Source: a virus. Taken from it: a DNA stretch of 13,403 bases. The DNA is taken from IMG/VR virus record IMGVR_UViG_3300006072_001582, one strand, 5' to 3'. Shown in pieces: positions 1 through 13,403 of the stretch; within the stretch, counting starts at the first letter, position 1, and each line of letters starts with the position of its first letter. The position numbers and the translations under genes were made by a program. The notes beneath the pieces are model-generated. The model was given only the letters and a program-made list of their open reading frames with translations, was not told the DNA's origin and made no database searches.

Positions 1-120
1 GGTGTCGACGTACTCCCCGTTATCGTACTTGCGCACAGGGGCAGTTGACTTCCGGCACCACATCTGCTCATCTTCATTGATGAGGTAGACGGAACCGCTG
101 ATCGTTGTTACTTCCTTCAT
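1..120 (-). CDS. hypothetical protein, 5' portion only (N-terminus MKEVTTISGSVYLINEDEQMWCRKSTAPVRKYDNGEYVDT...). It runs off the window start.
   Basis: The reverse complement of 1-120 reads ATGAAGGAAGTAACAACGATC... in an open frame to the window edge. ATG is at 118-120, preceded by GAGGAGG 5 nt upstream. It shares an identical 48-nt leader and first 7 codons with the gene at 200-568. Confidence 0.5.
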   Translation of the reverse strand, partial: MKEVTTISGSVYLINEDEQMWCRKSTAPVRKYDNGEYVDT

Positions 121-147
121 AGTGTCCTCCTCAGGACTGGTTTAGTT
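100..147. repeat. copy A of an exact 48-nt direct repeat (minus-strand sense: aactaaaccagtcctgaggaggacactATGAAGGAAGTAACAACGATC), spanning RBS, start codon and the first 7 codons
   Basis: The plus-strand string gatcgttgttacttccttcatagtgtcctcctcaggactggtttagtt occurs identically at 100-147 and 548-595. Flanking sequence diverges immediately on both sides. Confidence 0.9.
126..132 (-). promoter_or_regulatory. Shine-Dalgarno GAGGAGG for the partial gene at 1-120
   Basis: cctcctc on the plus strand is GAGGAGG on the minus strand, 5 nt upstream of the ATG at 120-118. Confidence 0.5.
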
Positions 148-199
148 GGGTTGAGCCCGTTGGGTGGGGTGGAGCTCATACCCCTTGTGAACCGAGCTG

Positions 200-568
200 T
201 TACTGCTCAGCCTGAGCAGCGTTGAGCTCAGCCATAGCAGCGTAGAACTTAGCCCAAGCAGCCTTGACCTCAGGCTTAGACAAAGCAGCGTCGTACTTAG
301 CCAAAGCAGCGTGGTACTCAGCCCAAGCATCGTCGAACTCAGCCTCGGCAGCCTTGAACTCAGCCTGAGCAGCGTAGTACTCAGCCTTAGCAGCGTCACG
401 CTTAGCCCAAGCAGCGTCCTGCTTAGCCTCGTACTTAGCCTCAACAGCCTCGTACGCAGCCAAAGCAGCCTCGTACTCAGCCTTAGCCTCAGCAGTCATG
501 AGCTCAGCCGCAGCAGCGTAGTGCTCAACCAAAGCCTTAGCAGCGTCGATCGTTGTTACTTCCTTCAT
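200..568 (-). CDS. Ala-rich (about 45% Ala) acidic protein, probably alpha-helical, built on a 7-residue repeat with the consensus pattern x-A-A-x-A-x-aromatic
   Basis: 122-aa ORF with ATG at 566-568 and TAA at 200-202, preceded by a GAGGAGG RBS at 574-580. Aromatic residues (Y/F/W) recur every 7 residues at positions 32, 39, 46, 64, 71, 78, 85 and 92, and again at 54 with an 8-residue gap. The heptads read AEYEAAL, AAYEAVE, AKYEAKQ and so on. The overlapping frames 142-444(-) and 311-601(+) are low-complexity shadows of the same repeat. Confidence 0.7.
   Translation of the reverse strand: MKEVTTIDAAKALVEHYAAAAELMTAEAKAEYEAALAAYEAVEAKYEAKQDAAWAKRDAAKAEYYAAQAEFKAAEAEFDDAWAEYHAALAKYDAALSKPEVKAAWAKFYAAMAELNAAQAEQ
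215..545. repeat. imperfect 21-nt periodic tandem repeat at the DNA level, underlying the heptad repeats of the 200-568 protein
   Basis: Units of the form agcagcgt(a/c/g)gtactcagcc(t/c)tagc / cagcctcgtac recur about every 21 nt (for example 281-301, 302-322, 365-385, 386-406). The base composition is dominated by gca/gcc/gcg strings. Confidence 0.6.
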
Positions 569-595
569 AGTGTCCTCCTCAGGACTGGTTTAGTT
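548..595. repeat. copy B of the exact 48-nt direct repeat (leader, RBS, ATG and first 7 codons MKEVTTI) in front of the 200-568 gene
   Basis: Identical to 100-147. Upstream and downstream sequences are unrelated between the two copies. Confidence 0.9.
574..580 (-). promoter_or_regulatory. Shine-Dalgarno GAGGAGG for the gene at 200-568
   Basis: cctcctc at 574-580 on the plus strand, 5 nt upstream of the ATG at 568-566 on the minus strand. Confidence 0.55.
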
Positions 596-677
596 AGCTG
601 ACTGCCATCATCAGGCCGTAGGCATCACCCTACGACGACCACAACATCTCCCGACGTGATGATTTCGGCATTGCGTA

Positions 678-863
678 CTACTTCTTGGCTGTGTACAGGA
701 CTGCAGCCACGAACACCACGAAGGTGAACGACAACGAGACCGTGAGTACGGTCTGTGCCTGCCCCATGGGTGTGTACCACGAGATCATTGTGTTCACGAA
801 CGATACTGCGAACGTGAACGCAAAGCTACCAAGGAGCAGGGAAATCAGCTGAAAACGCTTCAT
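678..863 (-). CDS. small membrane protein (61 aa) with two predicted transmembrane helices and a short basic C-terminus. A holin-like role is possible but unproven.
   Basis: The ORF is MKRFQLISLLLGSFAFTFAVSFVNTMISWY TPMGQAQ TVLTVSLSFTFVVFVAAVLYTAKK. It has two hydrophobic stretches of about 20 aa separated by a short polar loop, and ends in KK. A purine-rich stretch (AGAAAGAGA) lies upstream of the ATG at 861-863. Confidence 0.5.
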   Translation of the reverse strand: MKRFQLISLLLGSFAFTFAVSFVNTMISWYTPMGQAQTVLTVSLSFTFVVFVAAVLYTAKK

Positions 864-901
864 TTTAATCTCTTTCTAATGCATAGGTGTTGGGTTGCTG
901 C

Positions 902-938
902 GTACGTTCGCGCACTACTGAGTAGTACGTTTGCGCAC
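902..938. promoter_or_regulatory. two 14-nt direct repeats, gtacgttcgcgcac at 902-915 and gtacgtttgcgcac at 925-938 (one mismatch), flanking a small palindrome actacTGAgtagt at 914-926. They are a candidate operator or protein-binding site in the divergent intergenic region.
   Basis: The repeats are read directly from the sequence. The centre-to-centre spacing of 23 nt is about two helical turns. A third partial copy, tgtacgg, sits at 944-950. The location is between the divergently transcribed minus and plus gene blocks. Confidence 0.3.
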
Positions 939-1289
939 ACAGCTGTACGGTGCTGTAGTTCAGCAACATACAGGTGATTGCTAGGACCATGAGTTCTCAG
1001 CCTCACTTGGACATTGTGCCCAAGGACGCAAAGAAGTTCATAATCTTTTGCTAGCGTGTAACTAACACGCAATCCAAGGCGTGAAATAGGATGGTAGGTT
1101 TTGCCATTTCCAGAACTAAAGGGTTTTAGAGGAGTGCCTTGAGAGGGGCCTAAAAGGCTCTGTAAGGCTCGCCAATAGGGGTCCCAATGGGAGCGTATAG
1201 AAACGCCTTTAAAAAATGGCGGGCAGCCCTATGGGGTATTCGATAGAGCAGGCGTTGAGATCGTACTGGTAAGAATTAAAAATGCCGGA

Positions 1290-1416
1290 GGCCTTGGCCA
1301 CGTATGAAATACTAGGTGCACTAAAGTAGATAGAAAAAAAGAGAGAATAATGTAAATACATATAGTTCTTGGTATAGGGGATAGCAATCGTTCTACTATC
1401 TACAAAGGGCTACACC
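1290..1416 (+). promoter_or_regulatory. AT-rich leader region, probably carrying the promoter for the plus-strand gene block
   Basis: GC content drops sharply here (gaaaaaaagagagaataatgtaaatacatatagttcttggtatagg), immediately upstream of the first plus-strand gene. No perfect -35/-10 pair was identified by eye. Confidence 0.25.
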
Positions 1417-2082
1417 ATGGCACAATTCAACGACTGGTCAAAGAGCTACCAGAACTCACTTGGCAATGCAAAAATGGCGGCGATTAGAATCGCTGAGAAT
1501 AGATACCAAACGCGTGATGAATACGAAAAGAACAAGCCTAACGTCCCTAATGCAAGAATGGTTGATGAAGTCCGTAATAACCACAATGACGTTATGGACA
1601 GCATTGGGAAGTTCCAGCAAGGCGTTGGCAAAATTAATGAGATGCACCAAGAAGTACTGAAGCGCACACAACCAGGCGTTAACCAAAAGAGCCTTGTGGA
1701 ACACTATAGTGATCTTATGGAAAAGCATTTCCCCACAGAGCAGACAAGCACAAAGAGCAAGGCTCCTCAGACAAACATTAGCAAAGAAGTAACAAATCCT
1801 AACGTTCCTCTTAATTCAAGAGTGAAAATGATGCAAGACCCAGACACTAAGTACGACCCACAAGTCTACAAGCACGTTCGCGATGTGCCACCACTTAAGC
1901 CTAAGAGTGCTTCTTTCGCTGAGCGTTACGCCAACGATAACTCAATGGGGGAAAATAAGCCTATGGATGGGCACATCCCAGGCAATTCTCGCTACTGCTA
2001 CAACTGTGGAAACACCCAAGACATTGTTTGGGACCCAAGTCAAGAATACGGTACTGGATGGATTTGCCGTGGTGGTTGCTAA
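1417..2082 (+). CDS. hypothetical protein (221 aa) with a C-terminal zinc-ribbon-like motif (CYNCGNTQ...WICRGGC). Its N-terminus (NDWSKSY) resembles the WSKRYAAE motif of the 4188-5202 paralogs.
   Basis: Long ORF, the first in the plus-strand block. Cys motif is C-x2-C-x17-C-x3-C at the C-terminus. The minus-strand overlapping ORFs (1446-1667, 1456-1728) look like shadows. Confidence 0.7.
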   Translation: MAQFNDWSKSYQNSLGNAKMAAIRIAENRYQTRDEYEKNKPNVPNARMVDEVRNNHNDVMDSIGKFQQGVGKINEMHQEVLKRTQPGVNQKSLVEHYSDLMEKHFPTEQTSTKSKAPQTNISKEVTNPNVPLNSRVKMMQDPDTKYDPQVYKHVRDVPPLKPKSASFAERYANDNSMGENKPMDGHIPGNSRYCYNCGNTQDIVWDPSQEYGTGWICRGGC

Positions 2083-2188
2083 CTAAGAGTCTAAACCCCT
2101 TATAACATAAGGGTAAAAGAAAATTCGGAATCGGGTCTAGGGCCGGTGACGCGCGGTGCCTGTTTTAACTTAACTAGGAGTACAACTT

Positions 2189-3304
2189 ATGTTCAACAGC
2201 AGAGAAGCTGCAAAACACGATAAGCAATTCAAGACTGGCGGACCTGCCAACGCTATGACGCTTATCTTCCAAGAGGGTACTGGCTACGCCACCCACAAGG
2301 AAGACCCTGAGTACTATCATGTGCCTCATGCTGCTGAGAAAGCCGCTAATCACTACATAGGTAGCCTTGGTGAGGGCGAAGAGCCCAATCCTGACGCAGT
2401 GCGTTTGTTTGGCTTGAAGCAAAGCAAAAAGGGCGACTGGTATCACAGTCGCGCTCACTCGCAGCTTGCCAACGTTAAAACCGCAAGTGACTACATGACC
2501 GTTGCTGTTCGCAACAAGACCACTGGTAAGCCTTACAAGCTCGAGCAGGGTATCCATCAACCTACTATGATGATTGCTCCCAGCGAAGAGGGCCACCTGG
2601 ATGATCGTGCTTTCCGTGCCGGTGAACACGTGAATGCAAAGACTGGTGAGCGTTTGATGGTCCACCCACTCTCAGCTTTGGGCCAATCGCACATTGAAAC
2701 GATCATGGCATTCAACGAGGGTAAGCGTAATGGCATCAAGGACCCTAAGTTCTACCGAGATGCCATGAAAACTGTCAGTGATCACACCCATGGTGACCTT
2801 GCAGTGCACCACGCATTCAACCACACCATCAATAACATGTGCAATACGCACGATGCTATCGATCCTGTTGAGCAAAATGTCATCGATCAGGGTAAAACTG
2901 CCCGTTTTGTTAAGTGTTTCTGCCCATACTGCGTTGTAAATGACAGTACTCACCCCACAAACCAGCTTTGGGACATGCAACACCACGAAGAAGCAGCCAA
3001 AAGAACTCAAGATCCCAAGATTAGAGCCGCTTATTTCGCTGGTTTCCCCGTTTCTAAGGAAGCTGGAGAGTTTGGTAAGGTCGGAAGACGTTCACACCAC
3101 CGTGTTTTGTATGGTACGAAGGCTGAACAGACCATTATCAACCACCATGTCAACTTTAGACAGGACGAAGACAACCATGCAGCTGTAGTTGCACCAAGAG
3201 TACGTCATCGTGCGAGAGGTGGAGAGGGTGTTTCTCACCTTTACAGTCCTTCAACAGCTATAAATAGAGCTGTTCACGCTGATGATAGCTACTCTGGCGA
3301 ATAA
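2189..3304 (+). CDS. hypothetical His-rich protein (371 aa) containing a CFCPYC motif
   Basis: Long ORF with an AGGAG RBS at 2176-2180, 8 nt before the ATG. No recognisable catalytic motif. Many His and HH pairs suggest metal binding. Confidence 0.75.
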   Translation: MFNSREAAKHDKQFKTGGPANAMTLIFQEGTGYATHKEDPEYYHVPHAAEKAANHYIGSLGEGEEPNPDAVRLFGLKQSKKGDWYHSRAHSQLANVKTASDYMTVAVRNKTTGKPYKLEQGIHQPTMMIAPSEEGHLDDRAFRAGEHVNAKTGERLMVHPLSALGQSHIETIMAFNEGKRNGIKDPKFYRDAMKTVSDHTHGDLAVHHAFNHTINNMCNTHDAIDPVEQNVIDQGKTARFVKCFCPYCVVNDSTHPTNQLWDMQHHEEAAKRTQDPKIRAAYFAGFPVSKEAGEFGKVGRRSHHRVLYGTKAEQTIINHHVNFRQDEDNHAAVVAPRVRHRARGGEGVSHLYSPSTAINRAVHADDSYSGE

Positions 3305-3330
3305 ATTTTAAAGTTTTATCTTAAAATCTA

Positions 3331-3360
3331 TTGACAAAATTTAAAAAATCCTCTTATATA
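3331..3360 (+). promoter_or_regulatory. sigma70-type promoter: TTGACA (3331-3336), a spacer of about 18 nt, then TATATA (3355-3360), followed by an extended TATATATAAC
   Basis: A perfect -35 hexamer TTGACA and a TA-rich -10 sit in a 72-bp intergenic gap of extremely low GC, directly upstream of the RBS AAGGA (3368-3372) and the ATG at 3377. Confidence 0.55.
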
Positions 3361-3376
3361 TATAACTAAGGAAAAC

Positions 3377-3769
3377 ATGTCAAACAACTGTGACTGTGAA
3401 ACTTGCAAGAACATAGCAAAGTACAGTGATACTACAGAGAAAAGTGCATATGTCTCCCGGTTTAAGGAGAGTATTGCCCAGATTTCCTCTCTTTCAGATG
3501 ATTTCTCCATCGATAAGCCAAAAGATGACGATGAAGACCACACTTATCGTATTAACGTAAGTGAATACTGTCAGCATGACGGTGTTTTTGTAGAATATTC
3601 AAGAGAAATCACCTTTTCTGCTTTCCAGATGATCATGGAAGAGCTTTTTTCGTCAGATGAAGACGATTTTGACCTAGATAACGACGAATATGAAGATGAT
3701 ATACGCGTTTTTGGCAGTTTAGACGAAGTTATTGACTACCTTCAGCAAGATAGAAGGGAAAAAGACTAA
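3377..3769 (+). CDS. highly acidic small protein (130 aa) with an N-terminal C-x-C-x2-C motif and Asp/Glu-rich C-terminal half
   Basis: The ORF follows the promoter and RBS above. It reads MSNNCDCETCKN..., then DDDEDH, SSDEDDFDLDNDEYEDD. The stop overlaps the next start (TAATG at 3767-3771). Confidence 0.75.
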   Translation: MSNNCDCETCKNIAKYSDTTEKSAYVSRFKESIAQISSLSDDFSIDKPKDDDEDHTYRINVSEYCQHDGVFVEYSREITFSAFQMIMEELFSSDEDDFDLDNDEYEDDIRVFGSLDEVIDYLQQDRREKD

Positions 3770-4191
3770 TGACCGTCGAAGAACACGACCAGAACATCAC
3801 TCATCATTACACCGTTCACTATCCACCTCACCCAGAGCGTGAAGATGACCCACATTACGTCGATTTTCACCATTTCCGTGAGAAAACGAAGGCAACAGCT
3901 AAATGTGCTATCGGTGAACACCGCAATGACTTCAGTGAGTGCGACTCTGAGCACCCTTTGGAGCTTCACCACACTCATATTGAGTTCTCATTGCAGAATG
4001 GCGTCGATCTTAAGTGGCTCGAAGTCGATTACCCCGGCGTTAGCGACCCAGACACCGTTGGTGCATGGGTAGAGAGCGCAACAAACCTGGAATGGCTATG
4101 CCTTTTCCACCACAGAGGTCATGGTGGCAAACACGTCACAGCTTACAGTGACTTTGAGGCAGCAAAATACGTGAGAGGACTCATCAAATGA
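3769..4191 (+). CDS. His-rich HNH-like nuclease fold protein (140 aa)
   Basis: The sequence ...CAIGEHRNDFSEC...LELHHTHIEFSLQNGVDL...ATNLEWLCLFHHRGHGGKH fits the HNH pattern: C...C, HH, N, then N-L-x-x-L-C-x-x-H-H...H. It is translationally coupled at both ends (TAATG at 3767, ATGA at 4188). Confidence 0.55.
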   Translation: MTVEEHDQNITHHYTVHYPPHPEREDDPHYVDFHHFREKTKATAKCAIGEHRNDFSECDSEHPLELHHTHIEFSLQNGVDLKWLEVDYPGVSDPDTVGAWVESATNLEWLCLFHHRGHGGKHVTAYSDFEAAKYVRGLIK

Positions 4192-4379
4192 GTAATTGGT
4201 CTAAAAGATACGCAGCAGAAAGCTGTTCATGCCATGGCTGGCCTAAACTGCAATGCCCTAACACTACTGAAGCAGAAAAACACATTATTTCTGAACTGAG
4301 TAGACAAGAAGGGCCATCTATTGGACAAGAACACTCACGCAGTAAAGAAGTAGCCGATTGGATCCTTGGAGAAGATTAA
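4188..4379 (+). CDS. small Cys-containing protein (63 aa), paralog 1 of the N-terminal WSKRYAAE-motif family
   Basis: N-terminus MSNWSKRYAAES, then SCSCHGWPKLQCP. The start overlaps the upstream stop (ATGA) and the stop overlaps the next start (TAATG). Confidence 0.7.
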   Translation: MSNWSKRYAAESCSCHGWPKLQCPNTTEAEKHIISELSRQEGPSIGQEHSRSKEVADWILGED

Positions 4380-4834
4380 TGAATTGGAAAAGAAGATACG
4401 CAGCTGAAGATACCTTTGGTTATGGTGATCCACACTACTTTGAGAAGCTGATTGATCACGCCAACTCAGGCAACCCCAAGCTTATTCAAAAGAAGCATGT
4501 TGATGATGCTAGGCGACACGGTATTACCGAAGACGAAATGATGCATGCCTATACCCAGGGTCACAATATCAGTTTATATGTTAGTGCACGTGCACGCAAT
4601 GATCCATGGCTTGGTGGCCCAGAAGCTTTAGAGCCCAGACTGCTAGCTACACATGATGAAGCGATTGACGCTCTCAACAAAAATGTTATTCCCAATCACT
4701 ATAGCTTGCTTAGATCAGTTGGAGAAACAATAGTCAATGGACGTCATAACCCCAACCCAACACCGCTGAGCCACGATGCTGCTGTAGCAAAATCAGGCAA
4801 GATGACTCCGTCAGAACGACAGAAATACTTCTAA
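4379..4834 (+). CDS. hypothetical protein (151 aa), paralog 2 of the WSKRYAAE-motif family
   Basis: N-terminus MNWKRRYAAED. I prefer the start at ATG 4379 over the upstream in-frame ATG 4358 because it reproduces the paralog N-terminus and has GGAGAAG 6 nt upstream. TAATG overlap at both ends. Confidence 0.7.
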   Translation: MNWKRRYAAEDTFGYGDPHYFEKLIDHANSGNPKLIQKKHVDDARRHGITEDEMMHAYTQGHNISLYVSARARNDPWLGGPEALEPRLLATHDEAIDALNKNVIPNHYSLLRSVGETIVNGRHNPNPTPLSHDAAVAKSGKMTPSERQKYF

Positions 4835-5202
4835 TGTCTTGGTCAGAACGTTACGCTGCTCGTCCTGACCAATGTCAGCTCTGTGGTGCATCAGATGATG
4901 GCACCCACACAATCGTTAGCAGCGGTAGGTGCAAAGACACTACCGATTGCGAGAACACGCAGAAGTACTTAGCAGAGAACCCACAGCCAGAGCCTCCTAA
5001 GAAAACTAGGAAAGCACCTTACGTAGACCGCAAGGGTATGGCTGCATGTGCTCATGGCGACTGCCAAGGTAAGAAGTACGAAGCAAAATACATGCATTGG
5101 TCTGATTCTTCAGTGCCAAGGCCATATTGCAACACTCACTCGTTCCTTGCAGGCAAAACTGGTTTGACTTTTAGTCAATGGAAAGATGTTTATGGGAGAT
5201 AA
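4834..5202 (+). CDS. Cys-rich basic protein (122 aa), paralog 3 of the WSKRYAAE-motif family
   Basis: N-terminus MSWSERYAARPD, then CQLCG...GRCKDTTDC...CAHGDCQGKKY...YCNTH. TAATG overlap with the upstream gene. Confidence 0.7.
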   Translation: MSWSERYAARPDQCQLCGASDDGTHTIVSSGRCKDTTDCENTQKYLAENPQPEPPKKTRKAPYVDRKGMAACAHGDCQGKKYEAKYMHWSDSSVPRPYCNTHSFLAGKTGLTFSQWKDVYGR

Positions 5203-5204
5203 TA

Positions 5205-5933
5205 ATGACTGATCGTATTGTTGGTAAATTAGGTAAGCTAGATCCTAAGCGCCCTGCTGGGTTGCACATGCTTGCTTTCTATCAGGGCAACCCGTTGCCA
5301 GCTGCACCAGAGAGCGTAGCAGTGCCAAACGTAGATAATTGGGGAATGTTAGGAAATGATAAATATGGGGATTGTACTTTTGCTGGTATTGTTCACGCCA
5401 GAATGGCTAACGCTGCTTTCTTACAACTTACAGAAGGATTCCCTTCTGACACCGAAGTCGAGCAAAGTTATCTCAATTATACGAATGGACAAGATGCTGG
5501 AGCGGTCGAGGCGGACCTACTAAAGTACTGGCAGACCAACGGCTTGTTCAACACAAAGCTTGCTGCGTTCGCCCCTACTGACCATGCTGACCTTGATGAG
5601 CTCCGTAGCGTAATTGCCTCATATGGGCTTGTATACATTGGTGTAAAGCTCCCAGTCACCTTCCAGCAGCAATTCCTTGACAACCAGCCATGGGACCTTA
5701 CAGGCACTCCTGCTGACAATCAGATCGAAGGTGGCCACTGTGTCATCCTCGTAGGTTACGACAAGGACTACGCTGAATGTATTACCTGGGGTAAAGTGCA
5801 GAAGGTAACGTGGAGATGGCTGCAAAGCTACATGGAAGAGAGCTGGGCTCTCATCACTCCAGAGATTGTTGAAAAGGGTCAATATGGCGATATGCGCCTT
5901 GAAGACCTCACTACTGACCTAGGAAAACTATAA
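5205..5933 (+). CDS. papain-like (C1-type) cysteine peptidase, 242 aa
   Basis: Motif order and spacing are as in the papain fold. They are NDKYGDC-TFAG (Asn/Gln six residues before the catalytic Cys), GGHCVILVGYD (compare papain HAVAAVGY) and ECITWGKV (compare NSWG). I prefer the start at ATG 5205 (GGGAGA 7 nt upstream) over the in-frame ATG 5178, which overlaps the previous gene. Confidence 0.55.
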   Translation: MTDRIVGKLGKLDPKRPAGLHMLAFYQGNPLPAAPESVAVPNVDNWGMLGNDKYGDCTFAGIVHARMANAAFLQLTEGFPSDTEVEQSYLNYTNGQDAGAVEADLLKYWQTNGLFNTKLAAFAPTDHADLDELRSVIASYGLVYIGVKLPVTFQQQFLDNQPWDLTGTPADNQIEGGHCVILVGYDKDYAECITWGKVQKVTWRWLQSYMEESWALITPEIVEKGQYGDMRLEDLTTDLGKL

Positions 5934-7012
5934 TGGCTACTATCCCACCAAGACTTAATGAGATCCTTGAAGAACAAGGTGACAAGGTTCGAATTGTTGC
6001 TAACGTTGGCCCAATGCAATACAAGACTGGTGGCACGTTCTCTGGTCTTCTTGTTGAAGCAATGGTTGGAGACGAAAGAATCGGTTATTTCACTGCTGAA
6101 AAGCAAGCTAGTGGCAACTACATCATGGATGGTGTTTACGTCGAGCCAGAATACCGAAACCAAGGCATTGCAACAGAAATGCTGCGCAAAGCGCACGCAA
6201 CTGTTAACGTTATTCCTTATGCATTGACAGATAACCAAGTTTACCAGTCAGAAGCTGGTAAGGGGTTCGCTGCTAAGGAACTTCGCATGGTCACAGCAAG
6301 CACAATTGTGACTGCTGGTCCTCTTCTTGCTATCCCAGAGCTTCTTGGTGCTGGAGAAGCAGTCGCTGGCGCTGGAGAGGCCGCTGCAGGTGCAGAAGGT
6401 GGTGGCCTTAGCGATGCATTGAAGAACTTGCCTAGTAGCAACTCAAGCGGTAATGAAAATGGCGACAATAGCAATGATATCAACAATACGCCAGATTCTG
6501 GTGGTGGACAGAGCTTTGCAAGCCCTGCTAACCCCGTAGTTGGTAGCATCATGCCTCTCGAGACTCACCCATTGGCTCCTACTAAGCCAATCACAGTTCC
6601 ACCTTTCACTGTTCCTGGTAAGCCATCAAAGACTCCTCCTAGCACACCACAACCATCTCCCACAACTTGGCAGCCAGCTCCTAAAACAATTGGTGATAAA
6701 ACAGAAGCTATGCCAGAACCTTCTCTTGAAGAAGAAACTTCTACTAAGAGTGAGCAAGAGACTAGTAACCCACCACAACAGAAAACTAAGCTTGAAACTG
6801 GTCAAGAACCAATGCCTACAAAGCAAACGCCAGAAAAAGGGTCATCTGGTCCTGGAGCAGGAATTAACCTTGAGCTTAATTTCCCACAAACTATATCTAA
6901 CTTCCCAACGCCAGCTCGACCAATCACTGGTAGCAGCAATAGATTAATTGATTTGTTGAATGAAGATCGTTTCAATTCAACTAACAATGACAAACCAACC
7001 AGCTGGGAATAA
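5933..7012 (+). CDS. N-terminal GNAT-family acetyltransferase-like domain (about 125 aa) fused to a long Pro/Thr/Ser/Gly/Glu-rich tail (about 230 aa) predicted to be disordered
   Basis: GNAT motif A is recognisable: VYVEPEYRNQGIATEMLRKA, matching V-x-V-x-P-E-x-R-x-x-G-I-A. The rest of the protein is GAGEAVAGAGEAAAGAEGGG, NSSGNENGDNSNDINN, PPFTVPGKPSKTPPSTPQPSPTTWQPAPK and similar. TAATG overlap with the upstream peptidase gene. Confidence 0.55.
   Translation: MATIPPRLNEILEEQGDKVRIVANVGPMQYKTGGTFSGLLVEAMVGDERIGYFTAEKQASGNYIMDGVYVEPEYRNQGIATEMLRKAHATVNVIPYALTDNQVYQSEAGKGFAAKELRMVTASTIVTAGPLLAIPELLGAGEAVAGAGEAAAGAEGGGLSDALKNLPSSNSSGNENGDNSNDINNTPDSGGGQSFASPANPVVGSIMPLETHPLAPTKPITVPPFTVPGKPSKTPPSTPQPSPTTWQPAPKTIGDKTEAMPEPSLEEETSTKSEQETSNPPQQKTKLETGQEPMPTKQTPEKGSSGPGAGINLELNFPQTISNFPTPARPITGSSNRLIDLLNEDRFNSTNNDKPTSWE
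6314..7009 (+). other. low-complexity coding segment (Pro/Thr/Ser/Gly/Gln/Glu-rich) within the 5933-7012 gene
   Basis: Translation is dominated by P, T, S, G, E, Q, N with no hydrophobic core. The shadow ORFs 6241-6552(-), 6540-6947(+) and 6626-6826(-) arise from this region. Confidence 0.6.
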
Positions 7013-7047
7013 GAGTTAAAATAGCCCCCAAGGCGCACTAGTCATTG

Positions 7048-8328
7048 ATGAGATACGCTACGCAGGATAACGGTAATTACGGAGACGATGCTTCGCTACG
7101 AGGCATTGAAGACGCTACCGAAGAAGACGATGCAGGGTTTGGCCTTCCAGGACAAAGCCAAGTCGGTACTGTTGGCCACTTTAGATTTGCAGACATTGGT
7201 AACGAAGACGAAAACTCTACGAGATTGACTGCTTTGGGCGATGAGCCTAAGGATACAATTGATCTCGAGGGGCAACCACCAGTTGTAAGCAATGAAGGGC
7301 TTTCTAGCGTATCTCCAGGATCGCTATCAACAATTATTGGAGCAAACATGAGCATGAATGCAAGAATTGCATACGTGATGGAGAATGGTGAGCCATTCTG
7401 TAATCACTGCGAAAAGACATACTTCCCAGGAACACGCATTGCATGCACAAATTGTGGTTGCAACCAGCCTGCTAATGACCACGGCATTGGCGAAAATAAC
7501 TTCTCGGGTGAGAGCCTTACAACAGTAGAAGGCCCTACTGCTGGCGACCTTGATGCTGGGCGTGACATCGTTAAGGAAGAAGCCAAGATGGGTGCCGCTG
7601 GTGCTTTCTACGCTATGTTCAAAGAAGCTAACGACAGTGAGCTTTACTACCAAGGCTACGGCGATGCACAAGCCGGTAAGCCAATGGACGAGGATCTTGC
7701 CCTCTTGAGCAAGGACTACTACAACGGTTACACACAATACAAGTTCTACAACAAGACCCCTCAGCAGAGCGAAGGTCAAAGCTTGTATGACATTAAACCA
7801 AATAGCAACTTAATTCCTCGTTCACACGATATGACACCTGGCGAAGCTGATCGTGGTCCTCTTGAGCTGACTGATGGTTTTGGTCACGCCACTGCATCCA
7901 AGCAAGCCGGTATGTATGATGCTGCACACATGTTCATGGATCGTAAAGACTCCCAAAAGGATGATACCAATAACTATCATGCAACTTTGCGTGATAATCA
8001 CCTCAATGCTGCTAACAAGTTGCAGGGTAACACTCCATGGACAGGAAGAACAAACTCCGATGGTTCTCCAGAGTTTCATGGTGCTGATACTTTCCATGGT
8101 AACAACCCTGATCACAGAGAAGCTTACTTCGCACACATGGATGCAGCAGAAGCACATGGAAAAGCTATAGCGACTCCTGGAACTGGCATGAACTACAACA
8201 AAGCTAAAAACAATGCAGATGTTGCTTCTAGAGCAGCTTGGGCAAAAGACCCAACGAACCCACCTGCTGCAAGAACTTCATCTATCGGTCTCCCCGTTGA
8301 TGTTCTCGAAAAGTTCTTTAGGTTCTAA
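7048..8328 (+). CDS. hypothetical protein (426 aa) with an internal Cys4 zinc-ribbon (CNHCEKTYFPGTRIACTNCGC)
   Basis: Long ORF. The first ATG is at 7048 (N-terminus MRYATQDNGNYGDD). No recognisable enzymatic motif. It is rich in Asp/Asn/Gly/Tyr. Confidence 0.7.
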   Translation: MRYATQDNGNYGDDASLRGIEDATEEDDAGFGLPGQSQVGTVGHFRFADIGNEDENSTRLTALGDEPKDTIDLEGQPPVVSNEGLSSVSPGSLSTIIGANMSMNARIAYVMENGEPFCNHCEKTYFPGTRIACTNCGCNQPANDHGIGENNFSGESLTTVEGPTAGDLDAGRDIVKEEAKMGAAGAFYAMFKEANDSELYYQGYGDAQAGKPMDEDLALLSKDYYNGYTQYKFYNKTPQQSEGQSLYDIKPNSNLIPRSHDMTPGEADRGPLELTDGFGHATASKQAGMYDAAHMFMDRKDSQKDDTNNYHATLRDNHLNAANKLQGNTPWTGRTNSDGSPEFHGADTFHGNNPDHREAYFAHMDAAEAHGKAIATPGTGMNYNKAKNNADVASRAAWAKDPTNPPAARTSSIGLPVDVLEKFFRF

Positions 8329-8329
8329 T

Positions 8330-8980
8330 ATGGAAAAATGTTTTATATGCAGAAAGGGTGAGCTTGTTAGAACATCTAGCAAGGCTGGCCCAGAAATCTA
8401 TTGCAATGGTTGCCGCCGCGTAATTCTTAGCTCATATCTTGGTTTTAGCATCACTGCTGCCAATATTAAGAACGAGCTGAGAGAATGCACTATTGAAACT
8501 GCAGAAGGCACTAAGCCTGGCTGGAAGGGTCCTGGAGACAGAGCCAAGTGTCACCCATACGAGCCTGGTCAAAAGGAAAGTGAAGAAGATGCACTTGATA
8601 AGGCAGCTGATTCAGTTTACTCTTGGAGACACCGCAAGGGTGCATCAAAGATCGTTAACGCACTTGCTTATTTTGAAGGTGCTCCCGATCTGATTGTCCC
8701 ACAGGCAGCAAGCTCACAGAACTTTGCCAACAACGGTCCTAACCCAGCTCCTCCTTCGGGAAAATCACAAGATTTTTCTGCCACTAACCAAAGTCCTATT
8801 GGCCAAGCTACTGCTCCCAATGACCTTCAACCCGGTGAGCTGAATGGTGCTAACCCATTGAATAGTGGTACTACTGCTAGCAAGAAGCTAGCCGAGTTGC
8901 TTTCAGAAGAGTTGGGCCCTAGTTTTTGCACAGAACATATGACACACGATGAATGTAATCATAGCCGTAACGCGCAATAG
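8330..8980 (+). CDS. hypothetical protein (216 aa) with an N-terminal zinc-ribbon (CFICRKG-x16-CNGCRR)
   Basis: ATG at 8330, 1 nt after the upstream stop (8326-8328). The upstream extension to 8213 offered by the ORF track would overlap the previous gene by 116 nt and was not adopted. Confidence 0.65.
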   Translation: MEKCFICRKGELVRTSSKAGPEIYCNGCRRVILSSYLGFSITAANIKNELRECTIETAEGTKPGWKGPGDRAKCHPYEPGQKESEEDALDKAADSVYSWRHRKGASKIVNALAYFEGAPDLIVPQAASSQNFANNGPNPAPPSGKSQDFSATNQSPIGQATAPNDLQPGELNGANPLNSGTTASKKLAELLSEELGPSFCTEHMTHDECNHSRNAQ

Positions 8981-9007
8981 TGTTTGAGGAAAAAGAAAGA
9001 TTCCATT

Positions 9008-9718
9008 ATGAACTACGAAAATATTGAGATTGAAGCCAAGACCGCAGCTGCTGATGCACGCTGGTTTAATGGTACCTCAGAGAGCATCTTGACACGTCTT
9101 GACAGGCTGCAGGACATTCTGGACAAGACTCGTATGGCTGCTAGCAACCCTAACGTTGGTCAAAGAGAGATCGAGCGCTATGCTAACATCATCACCGAGC
9201 TTGGTGCTGAGAAGGAATCGCTCGAGAAGCTGGCTTCAGAGTACGTTGACTTTGACACTGAGGACTACCTCAATAGCTTGCCTGGTGGCACAATTGCTAA
9301 GGAATATCGCGTTAGCAGTGCTGGCACAAGTGACCTTGGCGAAGACGATGGCAGCCTTTTGTACCGTACAGCTGCTGGCATTGAGAACGAGTTTGAGTCA
9401 GCTGACTGGATCAACTTCGTTACCGCTGGTGCTGAGGTTTGGGTCGAAGACCAACACAACCGCCTTCTGGGCAGCCAGCTTGACACACGTGAAGCTGCTG
9501 TTTACTACGTAGAGCGTAAGACGCTTCCTATCCTTGACACTGTAAAGCGTGCATCTATCATTGAAAACTTTGTTGACAATGTAGAGATTTGCCGTCGTGC
9601 TAAGAACGAGGGTGCAGGCTTCCGCAGCATCAAGAGTGCTAGCGCAAACAAGCTGTCTGCTCGCCTTGTTGAGCAATCAATTGATGAGTCGTTCGGAGAT
9701 GGCCTTAACTGGCTGTAA
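9008..9718 (+). CDS. hypothetical protein (236 aa)
   Basis: Long ORF. ATG 9008 is preferred over the in-frame TTG at 8984. A purine-rich stretch (GAGGAAAAAGAAAGA) lies upstream. No recognisable motif. Confidence 0.65.
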   Translation: MNYENIEIEAKTAAADARWFNGTSESILTRLDRLQDILDKTRMAASNPNVGQREIERYANIITELGAEKESLEKLASEYVDFDTEDYLNSLPGGTIAKEYRVSSAGTSDLGEDDGSLLYRTAAGIENEFESADWINFVTAGAEVWVEDQHNRLLGSQLDTREAAVYYVERKTLPILDTVKRASIIENFVDNVEICRRAKNEGAGFRSIKSASANKLSARLVEQSIDESFGDGLNWL

Positions 9719-9720
9719 CA

Positions 9721-10242
9721 ATGGACAATTGGAATGGCTTTAGAGTCGTCAGTGCAACAGAAGTAGAAGACGACACTAGAAACCCAGAATATGAAGAAGA
9801 TGTTAGTGATTTGGTCACTGCTCTGAAAAGAATGCTTGCTGAAGCATACGTTCTCTATCACACTATTCATGGTTTCCACTGGAATGTTGTTGGTAATGAC
9901 TTCTATCAATATCACAAGTTCTTTGATGAGATCGTAGATGATATCTACGAAAACATTGACCCAATTGCAGAAAACATCAGAAAGCTTGATGCTAAAGCTC
10001 CTTTTGTAATGAGCCAATTGTCTGGACTTAGTAGAATTAAAGAAGTAGGTTCTAACGATGATGATGCACGTAATCTTGCTAAGCAATTCTTAGATATGAA
10101 TAACGAATACATTGATCACATTAAAAAGGTCTTTGTTCTTGCTGACAAAGATAACGAGCAAGGTATTGCAAACTTCATTGCTGAACGCATTGATCAACAC
10201 CAAAAGTGGAGTTGGTTCTTGAAGGCGTCTACCGAGGCATAA
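9721..10242 (+). CDS. dps: Dps-like / ferritin-superfamily protein (173 aa)
   Basis: Strong match to the Dps signature: LYHTIHGFHWNVVGNDFYQYHKFFDEIVDDIYENIDPIAENIRKL (compare Dps Y-x-K-x-H-x-FHW-x-V-x-G-x-x-F-x-x-x-H-x-x-F-E-E...D-x-IAERI). The C-terminal ADKDNEQGIANFIAERIDQHQKWSWFLKA also resembles the Dps helix-D region. The ferroxidase-site residues (His and Asp/Glu) are present. Confidence 0.8.
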   Translation: MDNWNGFRVVSATEVEDDTRNPEYEEDVSDLVTALKRMLAEAYVLYHTIHGFHWNVVGNDFYQYHKFFDEIVDDIYENIDPIAENIRKLDAKAPFVMSQLSGLSRIKEVGSNDDDARNLAKQFLDMNNEYIDHIKKVFVLADKDNEQGIANFIAERIDQHQKWSWFLKASTEA

Positions 10243-10472
10243 TGGATTCTGTAACAGAGAACATTGGCAACGTAGTCGCTTTGATGACAGCAATCATCAG
10301 CGGCCAAGAGGAACTAGCTTATGAAATGGTCCTCGAGAGTGATCCCATCCAACTCTTCAGCTCACTTGCTGGTGTTATGATGGTGTTTATCAATAAACTA
10401 TCAAGCGTAAATGGGATCACCCCAGAAGAGTGCCTAAAGAACTTGGCACTTGTAGCTTACAAAGCTAACTAA
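10242..10472 (+). CDS. hypothetical small protein (76 aa)
   Basis: ATG 10242 overlaps the upstream stop (TAATG). ORF MDSVTENIGNVVALMTAIISGQEELAYEMVLESD... Predicted helical and acidic. Confidence 0.55.
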   Translation: MDSVTENIGNVVALMTAIISGQEELAYEMVLESDPIQLFSSLAGVMMVFINKLSSVNGITPEECLKNLALVAYKAN

Positions 10473-10474
10473 AT

Positions 10475-10771
10475 ATGGCATTAGAATTACCTGAAGGTAT
10501 TACGTACAACGATAATATTTCTAACGAAATAGAACTAGAATTTGTAAACGAAGTTGTAAATGATACAAAATGTAACGTATGTGACTTGCATTTTCAAGCT
10601 TCACTCGTTACAATTAATAACAAGCACGAAGGTATCGTAAAAACGTTACCTAGTGAAATTATCCTGTGGAAGAACGTTTTGCCAAAGGATCGCGTTAGAT
10701 GCATAAAAATGATCAACGAGACTCTCATTGCAAAACTTGATAAACACAAGGAAAGGCATAGCAATGATTAG
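10475..10771 (+). CDS. hypothetical small protein (98 aa) with a CNVC motif
   Basis: ATG 2 nt after the upstream stop. ORF MALELPEGITYNDN...KCNVCDLHF... Confidence 0.6.
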   Translation: MALELPEGITYNDNISNEIELEFVNEVVNDTKCNVCDLHFQASLVTINNKHEGIVKTLPSEIILWKNVLPKDRVRCIKMINETLIAKLDKHKERHSND

Positions 10772-10928
10772 ATACAGCAACAAGCCAGATAAGAATGCCC
10801 GCGTCATCACAGATAGCCCTACTTCAACAATTAAGACAACTAAGGACGTAGCTGGTCTTAATGATGAAGATAAGCCTAGCGAGAACTATAGAGACTTGCA
10901 GGATCTTGATGCAGAGGACCAGAACTAA
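10764..10928 (+). CDS. hypothetical small acidic protein (54 aa)
   Basis: ATG 10764 with AAGGAAAGG upstream. It overlaps the previous gene by 8 nt (ATGATTAG). The in-frame ATG at 10728 is an alternative start. ORF MIRYSNKPDKNARVITDSP...DLDAEDQN. Confidence 0.45.
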   Translation: MIRYSNKPDKNARVITDSPTSTIKTTKDVAGLNDEDKPSENYRDLQDLDAEDQN

Positions 10929-10936
10929 GGAATAGT

Positions 10937-11803
10937 GTGACGAATAGCTCTGTCGAGAAAGACCCAGCAACACACATCGTTATCCCGGACACCCAAGCTA
11001 AAGATGGGGTCCCAACCGACCACCTCACTTGGATCGGTAACTATATTGTAGAAGAGTTCCACAACCAAGATGTGAAGATCATTCACCTTGGTGACCACGC
11101 TGATATGCCAGCCCTTTCAATGTACGATAAGGGTAAGAAGAGCATGGAGGGTCGTCGTGTCAAAGCAGACATTGAAGCTGCCAATGAACACTGGCACATC
11201 CTAAACCAGCCTCTTTATGACTATAACGAAAACAAGCGTAAGTCTAAGCATGCTATCTGGAACCCAGAGCGTCACATTCTTCTTGGTAACCACGAAGATC
11301 GTATCAACCGTGCAACAGAGATGGATGCACAGATTGATGGCCTATTTAGCACAGATGACCTTGACTATGCCCGTAGCGGTTGGAGAGTTAGCCCATTCAA
11401 GCACATTCTTTGGCTTGATGGTGTAGCTTACAGTCACTTCTTTTATAACCCTATGACGGGAAACCCCTATGGTGGTACGATTGATGCTCGTCTGAAGAAT
11501 ATCGGCCACTCATTTACTATGGGTCACCAACAAACGTTCCTTTATGGCATGCGTTACGTAAATGGTGGAAGAGATGAGAATGATGCGTTCTCACAGCATG
11601 GCCTTGTAGCCGGTGCTTGTTACCTGCACGATGAAAACTACAAGGGACCACAAGGCAATGCTCACTTTAGAGGTATTGTCGTTAAGCATGGTGTCCAAAA
11701 CGGTAGTTATGACATCCAGCAGATTTCACTTGACTCTTTGTGCCGTAGATATGAGGGAATGAGCCTCGAACGGTTTAAAAAGCTCAAGTATCCGCGTATG
11801 TAG
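10937..11803 (+). CDS. calcineurin-like metallophosphoesterase (288 aa)
   Basis: Ordered metallophosphoesterase motifs are present. They are VIPDTQ (motif I, D-x-Q variant of D-x-H), IHLGDHADMP (G-D-x-x-D), LLGNHED (G-N-H-E), then GHSFTMGH and AGACYLHD. The start is the GTG at 10937, preceded by AAGGAA. There is no in-frame ATG before the first motif. Confidence 0.65.
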   Translation: MTNSSVEKDPATHIVIPDTQAKDGVPTDHLTWIGNYIVEEFHNQDVKIIHLGDHADMPALSMYDKGKKSMEGRRVKADIEAANEHWHILNQPLYDYNENKRKSKHAIWNPERHILLGNHEDRINRATEMDAQIDGLFSTDDLDYARSGWRVSPFKHILWLDGVAYSHFFYNPMTGNPYGGTIDARLKNIGHSFTMGHQQTFLYGMRYVNGGRDENDAFSQHGLVAGACYLHDENYKGPQGNAHFRGIVVKHGVQNGSYDIQQISLDSLCRRYEGMSLERFKKLKYPRM

Positions 11804-11806
11804 TAT

Positions 11807-12868
11807 ATGGCATCTGCAAATACTCCTCAGCGCAAGAACTTTCGCTGCGTCTTTAACCGTTATGTCTCAGAATATAACAAGGACGCAGTCGTTCGTTCAA
11901 TCATGTCGCAGTTCGAAGGATACTTTGCTGATCCTGAAGTTACTTTGATGGATGATGGGTTTATCCTATCTCTTCAACTTGGTGATAACCTTTCAGCTAC
12001 GATGGCAAGAGACAAGATTCTCTGGAACCAGTTCGTAGAGAGCGTAACTGCTGCTGATGCCATCCGTAAGATACAAATCATCCGTTTACCTAAGGCTGGC
12101 AAAGAGAATGAGGGCACCGTAGGCGCCTGGGGGCCACACGGCAGTGATTCTGGTGTTGATGAGAAGCTTAACGTACCACTAGACCACGATCCACAATACA
12201 CGATCGGTCCTAATGAAGACGGATCGCTTGGTTGGCATGCTAGCGTACACTACGCTGACCCAACCAGTGAAATCTTGCCAACTGTCTATGGTCCAGGTGC
12301 TGAAGAAAGCCAACCTGTTGACGAAGACACCCCAAGTGACATTACTGACATGGATAGTGATGGAGCTACCCCTCTAGACGGTGGTGCACCAGCTAAGAAT
12401 CACCCAAAACTGTTTATGGGTTTCAAGATCGTTGCTATTGACAGCGATACTGGTGGTGCTTTCACTCTTAACCGACCAAACGAGTTCCAGAGTGTCAATG
12501 ATGCTCCTCGAGACGGTGGGCTTCACCAAGAAGCCACTCCAGCTACTGGTATTGGTGGTGGAGCTCCAATTAGTGGTGCTAGCTGGTACGTAACGCAACC
12601 TGGGAACGAACAAGGTACAGATTTGGGTACTGAGCGAGTCAAAAGCGATGCTTCAGCTGCTCCATTCGGGAACATTGCCGTTGGTAGCAGAACTGTAGAT
12701 GAGCCAATCGAAGAAGACGTTGAAAGTGCTGTTGACCTGCCACAAGCACGTGGTGGTGGTCAGTCTGTGCCAGATGGTGGTGCAGTAGAGGGCTGGTTCG
12801 CCAGTAATCACTTTGGTTTGAATGAAACATATGGATATGAAGGTGATGTAGATGACTACGACATATAA
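11807..12868 (+). CDS. hypothetical protein (353 aa) with a globular N-terminal half and a Gly/Asp/Pro/Ala-rich acidic C-terminal half
   Basis: Long ORF, ATG 3 nt after the upstream stop. The C-terminal half has repeated GGAP / GGGAP / GGGQSVPDGG stretches. Confidence 0.65.
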   Translation: MASANTPQRKNFRCVFNRYVSEYNKDAVVRSIMSQFEGYFADPEVTLMDDGFILSLQLGDNLSATMARDKILWNQFVESVTAADAIRKIQIIRLPKAGKENEGTVGAWGPHGSDSGVDEKLNVPLDHDPQYTIGPNEDGSLGWHASVHYADPTSEILPTVYGPGAEESQPVDEDTPSDITDMDSDGATPLDGGAPAKNHPKLFMGFKIVAIDSDTGGAFTLNRPNEFQSVNDAPRDGGLHQEATPATGIGGGAPISGASWYVTQPGNEQGTDLGTERVKSDASAAPFGNIAVGSRTVDEPIEEDVESAVDLPQARGGGQSVPDGGAVEGWFASNHFGLNETYGYEGDVDDYDI

Positions 12869-13400
12869 GGTATATGCCGCAGGACAAGACCCAACAAAGT
12901 ATGTACCAGGTGACTTCATCCTGGTTTCATCTAAGGGCATTCTAGCTAAGTTCATTCGTTTTGGTCAATTCATCCGTTACCACGGAAAGATGAAGCCTTT
13001 TGCTCATTGGAACCATGCAGCTATGATCATCGATGAAGGTGGAACCATCGTTGAGGCTGTTGGCCGTGGTGTTATCGTAAGCAACATTAGTGAATACAAA
13101 GACGTAGAGTATTACTACGTTACAACAAAGCTTAACAAGCAAAGCCGTGATCAAACGGTTTCTGCTTGCAAGAGCTTCATTAAGGATAAGTATGGTTTCC
13201 TAACCATCTTGAGTATTGCCTTGGAGTTGCTGACTGGTATTAAGATGCAGTTCACAAATAGCAACACCATGATTTGTAGTGCCGTAGTAGCACAATCCTT
13301 GTGGGCAGGCGGCATTGTATTCGACCGCAACCCTTACCAAATGATGCCAGCTGATCTTGCTGCTTCTTTCAATATTTTGACAGAATTGCCAAATAATTGA
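12852..13400 (+). CDS. putative permuted NlpC/P60-superfamily (YiiX/YaeF-like) hydrolase, 182 aa
   Basis: A His motif (FAHWNHAAMIIDEGG) precedes a Cys-Ser motif (NTMICSAVVAQSLWAGG). This is the His-before-Cys order and the C-S dipeptide typical of permuted papain-fold YiiX/YaeF-type proteins. The start overlaps the upstream gene by 17 nt. Confidence 0.45.
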   Translation: MTTTYKVYAAGQDPTKYVPGDFILVSSKGILAKFIRFGQFIRYHGKMKPFAHWNHAAMIIDEGGTIVEAVGRGVIVSNISEYKDVEYYYVTTKLNKQSRDQTVSACKSFIKDKYGFLTILSIALELLTGIKMQFTNSNTMICSAVVAQSLWAGGIVFDRNPYQMMPADLAASFNILTELPNN

Positions 13401-13403
13401 TAA

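Follow-up and report, generated by a model that had tools for sequence, protein, structure and literature searches.

The record IMGVR_UViG_3300006072_001582 of the virus collection IMG/VR is a stretch of 13,403 nucleotides (the window, by which we mean the whole of the DNA analysed), and on its minus strand, at positions 200–568 with the stop included, lies a gene for a 122-residue Ala-rich heptad protein that begins MKEVTT and finishes AAQAEQ, as read from the list of open reading frames (ORFs) and their translation. The start codon ATG is at 566–568 and the stop codon TAA at 200–202, and the Shine-Dalgarno (SD) sequence AGGAGGA is positioned 5′ of the gene at the right distance. Three overlapping ORFs are present at this locus because the gene body repeats a stop-free unit. 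The same protein sequence was found on 11 contigs from independent assemblies, and the assembly collection lists it in 37 blocks. On the comparative evidence set out below, we conclude that this ORF is a real gene that encodes a protein, in an uncultured tailed phage of freshwater type.

Ala contributes 45 of the 122 residues (36.9%), fewer than the approximately 45% given in an earlier note on this DNA, while charged residues account for 36 (30%) and aromatic residues for 12%. The three Thr are all located within residues 1–25, and the protein is devoid of a signal peptide and a transmembrane segment. With 23 Asp and Glu and 13 Lys and Arg, its net charge is −10 and its isoelectric point (pI) 4.63; the description as strongly negative is thus right about the acidity but overstates its degree.

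The 21-nt periodicity described before was recovered by Tandem Repeats Finder as two arrays on the minus strand. Array 1 (206–418, residues ~51–121; period 21, 9.9 copies, 72% matches, 6% indels) comprises seven in-phase heptads (51–98), a 6-nt insertion around S97-K98-P99 and then three further heptads, so that the copy spacing reads 21, 27, 21 and so on. Array 2 (425–483, residues ~29–48; period 21, 2.8 copies, 81%) contains the run Y32/Y39/Y46 and is 12 nt, that is four residues, out of phase with array 1. Aromatic residues occupy positions 32, 39, 46, 54, 64, 71, 78, 82, 85 and 92, to which Y17, Y65, W105, F108 and Y109 are added. Pairs at i and i+7 are enriched both for aromatic (6 compared with 1.72 in shuffles, p = 0.0016) and for hydrophobic residues (13 compared with 5.74 expected, p = 0.0004); the size of the largest mod-7 class gave p = 0.27, but this statistic ignores register shifts and the pair test was used instead.

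The aromatic positions and their above-chance spacing therefore stand as first reported, but they do not make up a single strict series. One run consists of 32/39/46 (mod 7 = 4) and the other of 64/71/78/85/92 (mod 7 = 1); the two are 18 residues apart, and the resulting shift of +4 coincides with the 6-nt gap between the DNA arrays (nt 419–424, K49-Q50). Trp54 and Trp82, formerly regarded as an 8-residue offset and an off-series residue, are both 'a' positions of the second run, in which W54, W82, L89 and L96 (all mod 7 = 5) build a second core position three residues before the aromatics. A Pro is indeed found at 99 (codon CCT, 272–274, minus strand), but rather than capping the block it is followed by three heptads (100–122); according to the sequence and to DSSP of the structural model, it marks the predicted break between helices 26–96 and 99–121. 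The surrounding motif ...AALSKPE... recurs in another family member (L055_76). In total, the protein displays three registers, 25–50, 51–98 and 100–122.

A family that gains and loses repeat units in frame

No model of Pfam, PHROGs or NCBIfam reaches threshold for the window protein, in line with the initial failure to recognise its family. A word-indexed protein search returned one weak match and HMMER over 1.84 billion representatives five, none of them close relatives. We traced the diverged 298-residue and 86-residue neighbour genes and searched their contigs by local tblastn without low-complexity masking. This identified two paralogues of 98 and 71 residues in the sister phage L019, downstream of its 86-residue gene, with 48–56% identity and E values down to 7e-18. 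A 35-residue member in another relative was reached via the common gene start, and a degenerate DNA pattern for this start, ATGAARGARGTNACNAC-N7-GCNGC, scanned over metagenomes, yielded 43 loci, 20 of which encode Ala-rich members, with ~14 further distinct proteins. The total is 18 distinct proteins of 30–126 residues in related metagenomic phages. These comparisons establish a family of small, free-standing proteins that had not been described before and to which the window protein belongs; the true relatives are not linkers of larger proteins.

Of eight family sequences looked up in a 15-billion-protein collection, seven are missing, the window protein among them, and the 30-residue member is present. 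Scans of IMG/VR with the protein, with the 86- and 298-residue neighbours and with the exact DNA pattern gave no match, pattern hits having been rejected on confirmation by tblastn, a negative that for low-complexity sequences is no measure of rarity. A widespread family passed for an orphan owing to low-complexity masking and to the incompleteness of large protein collections, and negative homology results for low-complexity proteins from such collections should not be taken as evidence that they are rare.

All members begin with MKEVTT, among them the two L019 paralogues that were found by the pattern-free tblastn, and most finish with A-x-A-E-Q. Their 110 phased heptads follow the consensus [Y/L/F](d)-[E/K/D]-A-A-x(a)-A-[E/K]. 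The anchor position d is Tyr in 50%, Leu in 41% and Phe in 9% of cases and is followed by Glu, Lys or Asp at e; Ala prevails at f (82%), g (77%) and b (86%), position c is Glu (47%) or Lys (35%), and position a is mixed (Trp 19%, Leu 13%, Glu 19%, Lys 15%). Pooled over the 18 members, hydrophobic spacings peak at 3, 4, 7, 10, 11, 14, 18 and 21, and aromatic spacings at 7, 14 and 21. The 98-residue paralogue maintains one unbroken a/d register over ~12 heptads, with both core positions mostly hydrophobic.

The gene body is a 21-nt minisatellite, and members differ from one another by in-frame repeat indels. A 30-residue allele (L030), present on 5 contigs, and a 100-residue allele (L033) are distinguished by exactly 210 nt, corresponding to 10 units, bounded by 45-nt exact direct repeats, and their flanks are 99.2–100% identical. 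Comparison of such alleles demonstrates that members gain and lose repeat units in frame by recombination between the repeats, and provides a clean natural example of a protein whose length evolves in 7-residue steps.

Lengths of 30–126 residues in near-identical phage backgrounds would equally be expected if the array had no function at the protein level, either as a selfish or neutral minisatellite in a mobile cassette or as an element acting as DNA or RNA, with the ORF open only because its unit is stop-free. Consistent with this possibility, the nucleotide sequence of both gene ends is conserved, synonymous sites included; third-position A is almost absent (23/1415); and 13 of the 18 members are also open in the best antisense frame (−1). 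Synonymous changes are scarce as well, representing 4.6% of the differing in-register codon pairs compared with 21% of possible single-base changes, a crude count that is not a dN/dS ratio. This deficit may be read as strong synonymous-site selection for translation, as diversifying change of the protein, or as both. On the other hand, the Ala frame is the sole frame of six that is open in all 18 members, the other two sense frames being open in none, and at ~50% identity the heptad pattern is held position by position, with Ala at b, f and g, Glu or Lys at c and e, and Tyr, Leu or Phe at d. The SD sequence is strong and rightly spaced. The folding energy of the messenger RNA (mRNA) resembles that of shuffles (z = −0.3 and −1.1), with neither a structured nor an unstructured signal, and the Rfam search returned tRNA only, so that there is no sign of a structured RNA. 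We consider a lack of function at the protein level quite unlikely.

Codon usage of the family is extreme: GCT serves for 531 of 556 Ala, AAG for 169 of 169 Lys, TAC for 98 of 100 Tyr, GAG for 193 of 226 Glu and CAG for 21 of 22 Gln. The preference for GAG, AAG and TAC is common to the whole minus-strand cluster, as determined by comparing window positions 1–900 with 1400–13403 and by including L001 6315–9185. The G+C fraction at third codon positions is 0.57–0.82 in the cluster and 0.28–0.51 in the divergent plus-strand operon, and cluster genes (61, 122, 86, 98, 298 and 54 residues) use G-ending purine codons to 86–100% and C-ending pyrimidine codons to 80–97%. This split between the operons could reflect high expression or a different origin. 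The monopoly of GCT is in contrast specific to the Ala-rich family, as the 298-residue neighbour distributes its Ala codons 7/5/8/7. By standard wobble rules GCU should be readable by both bacterial tRNA-Ala species, which would suit a gene with 37% Ala. A phage-encoded tRNA-Ala supplying these codons was also considered; the nearby tRNA-like gene is not a tRNA-Ala.

Predicted helix and known Ala-rich designs

AlphaFold2 (AF2), run on the single sequence as a monomer, predicts helices at residues 2–21, 26–96 and 99–121, the longest spanning 71 residues, with a mean predicted local distance difference test (pLDDT) score of 87.8 and a predicted template modelling (pTM) score of 0.54. The model supports the secondary structure of the window protein, with the helix that had been anticipated; together with the family-wide spacing peaks at 7, 14 and 21, it agrees with the helical heptad geometry and aromatic stripe that had been read from the letters. 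A Foldseek comparison of the model with the PDB and with viral models retrieved generic helical hairpins only (best E values 0.77 and 0.17).

The hydrophobic moment of residues 51–98 is lower than that of 97.7% of shuffles, which is explained by Ala all around the helix and by two charged stripes that face opposite sides. The earlier suggestion of a surface-binding helix is thereby disfavoured in its membrane sense. This bears on the proposal that the product is an amphipathic helix, active at or associated with membranes, and cooperates with an adjacent small membrane protein, for instance in lysis control or superinfection exclusion. Upstream in the same operon (678–863, minus strand), a 61-residue putative membrane protein with two segments is read from the sequence, its gene sharing the G/C-ending codon bias of the cluster; such a small hydrophobic protein gene (48 residues in relatives) adjoins family members in several phages, and there is a weak, low-probability fold likeness to PspA/Vipp1 and BAR helices. 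However, the main array does not form an amphipathic helix, the window protein itself has no targeting or membrane-spanning segment, the two small membrane proteins are mutually unrelated and their adjacency is inconstant. A membrane role is accordingly very unlikely.

A second proposal, a DNA mimic with anti-restriction function of the Ocr/ArdA type, in which the carboxylates of an early acidic helix imitate the DNA backbone, draws on the pI and net charge of the window protein, on its predicted elongated helical shape and on its place at the head of an early or replication-side operon. The acidity, however, is not a property of the family: net charges range from −18 to +3 and pI values from 4.19 to 8.95, the upper value belonging to a single member. 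Furthermore, the 13 Lys and Arg are interleaved with acidic residues at the same heptad positions, and no anti-restriction family of PHROGs or Pfam was matched. The nucleic-acid mimicry put forward in the earlier note is weakened by the lack of a conserved acidic surplus, and we rate it as very improbable indeed. Its exclusion of type I antifreeze proteins is in turn confirmed: those are likewise Ala-rich single helices of short repeats, but with an 11-residue, Thr-containing period and >60% Ala, whereas the phage protein repeats every 7 residues with Tyr, Phe or Leu, is not enriched in 11-residue periods and contains 37% Ala. Nor does it match SAH/ER-K domains, which consist mostly of Glu, Lys and Arg, joined by i/i+4 salt bridges, with few hydrophobics.

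Among known proteins, the nearest parallel is offered by the Ala-rich A-region of streptococcal antigen I/II (AgI/II; SpaP/P1, PDB 3IOX), a likeness of design and not a family membership. Both have an extended Ala-rich helix with Tyr at 7-residue intervals, each followed four residues on by Leu (Y-x-A-x-L-A-x), and AgI/II is the recurrent top weak match (phmmer against the PDB, E = 2.6; PDB profile 6e36, E = 0.44; NCBIfam NF033804). The heptad tyrosines of the A-domain interlock with the PxxP pockets of a polyproline-II (PPII) helix (PMC7732690; PMC3707005), and the aromatic stripe acts there as a docking surface. This precedent for the design was missed in the earlier note. The similarity of the sequences is insignificant and does not demonstrate homology: NF033804 scores 10.3 bits against a cutoff of 1500, and Pfam Strep_SA_rep is not matched at E ≤ 10. 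Moreover, AgI/II is a secreted, LPXTG-anchored adhesin of ~1500 residues, whose 82-residue A repeats pair with its own P-region, whereas the phage protein is cytoplasmic and stand-alone, without signal peptide, V-region, P-region or LPXTG motif.

By analogy with the adhesin, the Tyr stripe might clamp a PxxP-type PPII segment of phage or host and form an α/PPII hybrid fibril without any self-association. The heptads, Y-x-A-A-L/x-A-x, are patterned like the A-region of SpaP, and a single constant hydrophobic position per heptad suits a docking stripe better than an a/d core; in addition, the GNAT protein of the same phage (5933–7012, plus strand) carries a Pro/Thr-rich tail. Against hetero-association speak the AgI/II matches themselves, all far under significance, the absence of the partner regions from a 122-residue protein, and the GNAT tail, which is irregular, of low complexity and without a PxxP repeat; the tail as polyproline partner of the helix is speculative. 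As a whole, we regard this alternative as unlikely. In the GNAT protein, the domain covers residues ~35–90, and the tail of ~250 residues is composed first of Gly/Ala and then of Pro/Thr/Ser/Gln/Glu; protein and tail are kept in relatives (321–344 residues).

Heptad coiled coils with small or aromatic cores, such as antiparallel coils of Alacoil type, the Ala clusters of tropomyosin and the α-hairpins of the periplasmic adaptors MacA and MexJ, resemble the phage protein in their 7-residue periodicity with 3/4 spacing, in their high Ala content and in the long helices and hairpin predicted here. The family profile matches the hairpins of MacA (E = 3.5e-4) and MexJ (5e-3) and tropomyosin (0.5). 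These are generic coiled-coil likenesses: in the phage family only d is consistently hydrophobic, and mostly aromatic, with Ala at b, f and g, and the other domains of these proteins are lacking.

The best database matches (E = 4e-3 to 1e-5) belong to an unannotated family of 135–216-residue proteins, P0001 (L007 362–769), P0003 and P0006. Their heptad words are near-identical to those of the Ala-rich family (FDAAWAEYVAAWATYKPE versus FDDAWAEYHAALAKYDAALSKPE) and their arrays are likewise variable in length. In contrast to the MKEVTT proteins, they lack this start, are basic (net +1 to +12) and hold the array internally, between two conserved ends that contain Cys and His, an N-terminal 'HLHHD..EWC.DY' and a C-terminal 'CPxCPWxGKTIFP'. 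The two families may share a heptad module. The terminal Cys and His residues of the P0001 group might form one metal site from which the array protrudes as a hairpin.

Shared leaders and intercistronic modules

The start of the gene is part of a longer conserved element. An exact direct repeat of 48 nt encompasses 27 nt of 5′ untranslated region, the SD sequence, the ATG and the first seven codons (MKEVTTI) of the Ala-rich gene (leader copy 1, 548–595, minus strand) and recurs before and into the next gene, which encodes 86 residues (leader copy 2, 100–147, minus strand). Of this gene, the 5′ part of 40 codons (1–120, minus strand) is contained in the window, where it is cut by the edge; the full gene is present in L001 (7058–7318). 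The 86-residue protein is unrelated to the Ala-rich protein yet also begins with MKEVTTI, because the leader includes the first seven codons. In the sister phage L019, the leader precedes three consecutive genes (9984–10021, 10348–10386 and 10722–10756). All 18 members agree exactly in the first 17 nt of their coding sequence, even though the search pattern allowed synonymous variants, and these nucleotides employ GAA, GTA and ACA, codons that are avoided or not favoured in the gene bodies. Such identity with unfavoured codons indicates that the nucleic acid itself is constrained, the simplest candidate being the initiation of translation. According to predicted folds, the SD sequence lies inside a 5-bp hairpin (GUCCU-GAGG-AGGAC, 572–585), and its single observed variant alters the loop only.

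On either side, the gene is flanked by recurrent intercistronic modules. Upstream module A (596–677, minus strand; predicted folds, z = −2.4) contains the hairpins CGUAGG-GUGAUG-CCUACG (~618–633) and CUGAU-GAUGGCA-GUCAG (~598–616); in its general form of two or three hairpins (...GTAGGGTGATGCCTACGGCCTGAYGATGGCAGTCAG), it also precedes other small genes in related phages. Downstream module B (148–199, minus strand; ...GAGCTCCACCCCACCCAACGGGCTC), with the core CCACCCCACCCAACGGGC at 155–172, belongs to a set of three 3′ flanks that recur beside family genes. Copies of the two modules were located in L001 (6545–6581, 7006, 7366 and 9233), L019 (10303–10340, 10691, 10979 and 11227), L017 (5281 and 7949) and L045 (3429–3465 and 3834). 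The predicted folds are modestly more stable than those of shuffles in four of the five intergenic regions (z of about −2.1 to −2.6), and the hairpins have no U-tract. A consensus scan of window positions 1–1500 detected no sigma-70-like promoter in the modules or next to the gene; its one weak site (1255–1283) is on the other strand and is no more than shuffled sequence would yield.

Gene order and copy number vary between relatives, and comparison of the loci demonstrates that cassettes with a nucleotide-conserved SD/start leader and hairpin modules have been shuffled among related phages. A similar arrangement is known from the PeSL cassettes of T4-type phages, in which a plastic early region contains small accessory genes flanked by repeated stem-loop modules; recombination between these modules yields insertions, deletions and reshuffling among close relatives (Arbiol et al. 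2010, PMC2839356). Unlike PeSL modules, those described here have no detected sigma-70-like promoter and hairpins without U-tracts, the repeated unit takes in the SD sequence and seven codons, and the phage is not T4-like. Unrelated phage genes that share a nucleotide-identical start cassette extend the idea of mobile regulatory cassettes beyond T4-type phages.

Many contigs (the window, L002 and L008–L012) end inside or just past the leader and the 86-residue gene. This gene is 97% identical in the co-occurring sister phage L019, which stems from the same JGI sample as L001, but there it has a different upstream context; this makes it likely that the assembly graph broke between strains at the window edge. 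The 86-residue protein has a borderline match to Pfam Vault_4, a repeat of the Major Vault Protein, of 23.9 bits for the 40-residue fragment and 21.6 bits for the full protein at a cutoff of 22.9.

Operon setting and possible role

The gene content of the window is phage-like and includes a Dps-like ferritin (9721–10242; Pfam Ferritin, 7e-20), a metallophosphoesterase (10937–11803; phrog_221), a permuted papain-like protein similar to C92 amidases (12852–13400), one or more HNH endonucleases and the GNAT protein. The metallophosphoesterase is ~45% identical to proteins of Vibrio, Alcaligenes, Rheinheimera, Pseudomonas and Acinetobacter phages. Megablast and tblastn against GenBank phages returned no match for the window, the protein or the 298-residue neighbour, and the 5′ signature had no match in GTDB genomes and hence gave no clue to the host.

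In every relative, the Ala-rich gene or genes are situated within the first 1–2 kb of an operon that diverges from the p221/p371 operon, upstream of a conserved protein of 254–305 residues, a 54-residue protein and an AAA_5 ATPase. In L048, a DnaC-like loader, a DnaB-like helicase, a single-stranded DNA-binding protein and DNA polymerase follow on the same strand. From this gene order we infer an early or middle accessory gene and not a virion gene. Relatives pair the ATPase, which is of MoxR type, with a protein of ~498 residues (phrog_33218).

The same surroundings have to be considered for a virion assembly protein, a scaffold or decoration protein that would be an abundant, acidic, elongated helix encoded near a capsid gene. 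Scaffolding proteins are typically acidic helical rods, the window gene has signals of high expression, and a conserved downstream protein of unknown function occurs in every relative. Searches of Pfam, PHROGs and the PDB, however, found no signature of a capsid, portal or protease in this neighbour (298 residues here); the PDB search produced chance ankyrin matches, and the predicted model of the neighbour has a pLDDT of 33. Replication genes follow downstream in L048, and in L043 the terminase is on the other strand, ~8 kb away; besides, a length that ranges from 30 to 126 residues between near-identical phages is unusual for a scaffold. We give this explanation hardly any credence. The DNA-mimic, membrane-helix, antifreeze and scaffold readings are thus each disfavoured by a specific test.

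We instead propose a repeat-built helical rod that works through its aromatic stripe. The strong SD sequence, the cluster-wide G/C-ending codon bias and the near-exclusive use of GCU for Ala suggest a protein that is made fast, in quantity and early in infection. The product would be a very stable Ala-based α-helix, in the window protein a rod of ~70 residues with two shorter helices, on which a continuous stripe of Tyr, Phe and Leu (d), in places reinforced by Trp, Leu and Met (a), runs between two charged stripes. The protein most probably acts through this stripe, either via self-association, as a coiled coil or a bundle of helical hairpins, or by docking onto a partner. The role would probably be accessory, in host takeover or in defence and counter-defence, and would tolerate or even exploit variation in length.

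Several points weigh against this proposal. Since the search pattern required MKEVTT, the conservation of this start is partly by construction. An amplified stop-free unit easily keeps an ORF open, as the antisense frame illustrates, and the shortage of synonymous changes could stem from a constrained nucleic acid instead of a constrained protein. An idealised helical sequence receives a high pLDDT from AF2 almost by default, and the low pTM renders the tertiary arrangement uncertain. Only ~35% of the 'a' positions are hydrophobic, which together with the low hydrophobic moment means that a classical two-stranded coiled coil is not assured. Finally, the early timing rests on gene order in relatives, and no sigma-70-like promoter was detected next to the gene. 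We consider the structural and evolutionary description of the family highly probable, whereas its functional part, a rigid and highly expressed helix with stripe-mediated association and an accessory role in host interaction, is possible but doubtful; to the explanation as a whole we assign about an even chance.

If the protein is made as predicted, these proteins would make up a new family of minimal natural helical repeat proteins with an aromatic core and a mostly Ala surface, a design that has mainly been studied in synthetic coiled coils and whose natural case is the stalk of the AgI/II adhesins. A bolder version, in our estimate quite improbable, envisages a self-diversifying early-gene system: by means of a cassette with nucleotide-fixed ends, phages would exchange, duplicate and resize an Ala/Tyr helical 'ruler' by whole heptads, and the resulting helix would bind a proline-rich or coiled-coil host target, such as a defence sensor, via a tyrosine interlock. 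An arms race would then have produced the variation in length and stripe, with scarce synonymous amid abundant amino-acid change as its signature, and the helix/PPII tyrosine interlock, so far known only inside streptococcal AgI/II adhesins, would have a second occurrence.

Two further features of these phages were observed. On the plus strand of the window, three consecutive genes (4188–4379, 4358–4834 and 4834–5202) encode proteins that open with W-x-x-R-Y-A-A (MSNWSKRYAAE, MNWKRRYAAE and MSWSERYAAR), the second case here of neighbours sharing an N terminus. A tRNA-like gene (Rfam tRNA, 57 bits) is found in four phage types (L001 7724–7794, L019 12023–12093, L017 3751–3821 and L062 2623–2693); ARAGORN assigns it no anticodon, and its loop is apparently one base short (GCGAA-CGUAUG-UUCGU). 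Odd tRNAs lie nearby, namely Asn-ATT in L013, Ile-AAT in L017 and one with a 4-base 'ATAA' anticodon in L062.

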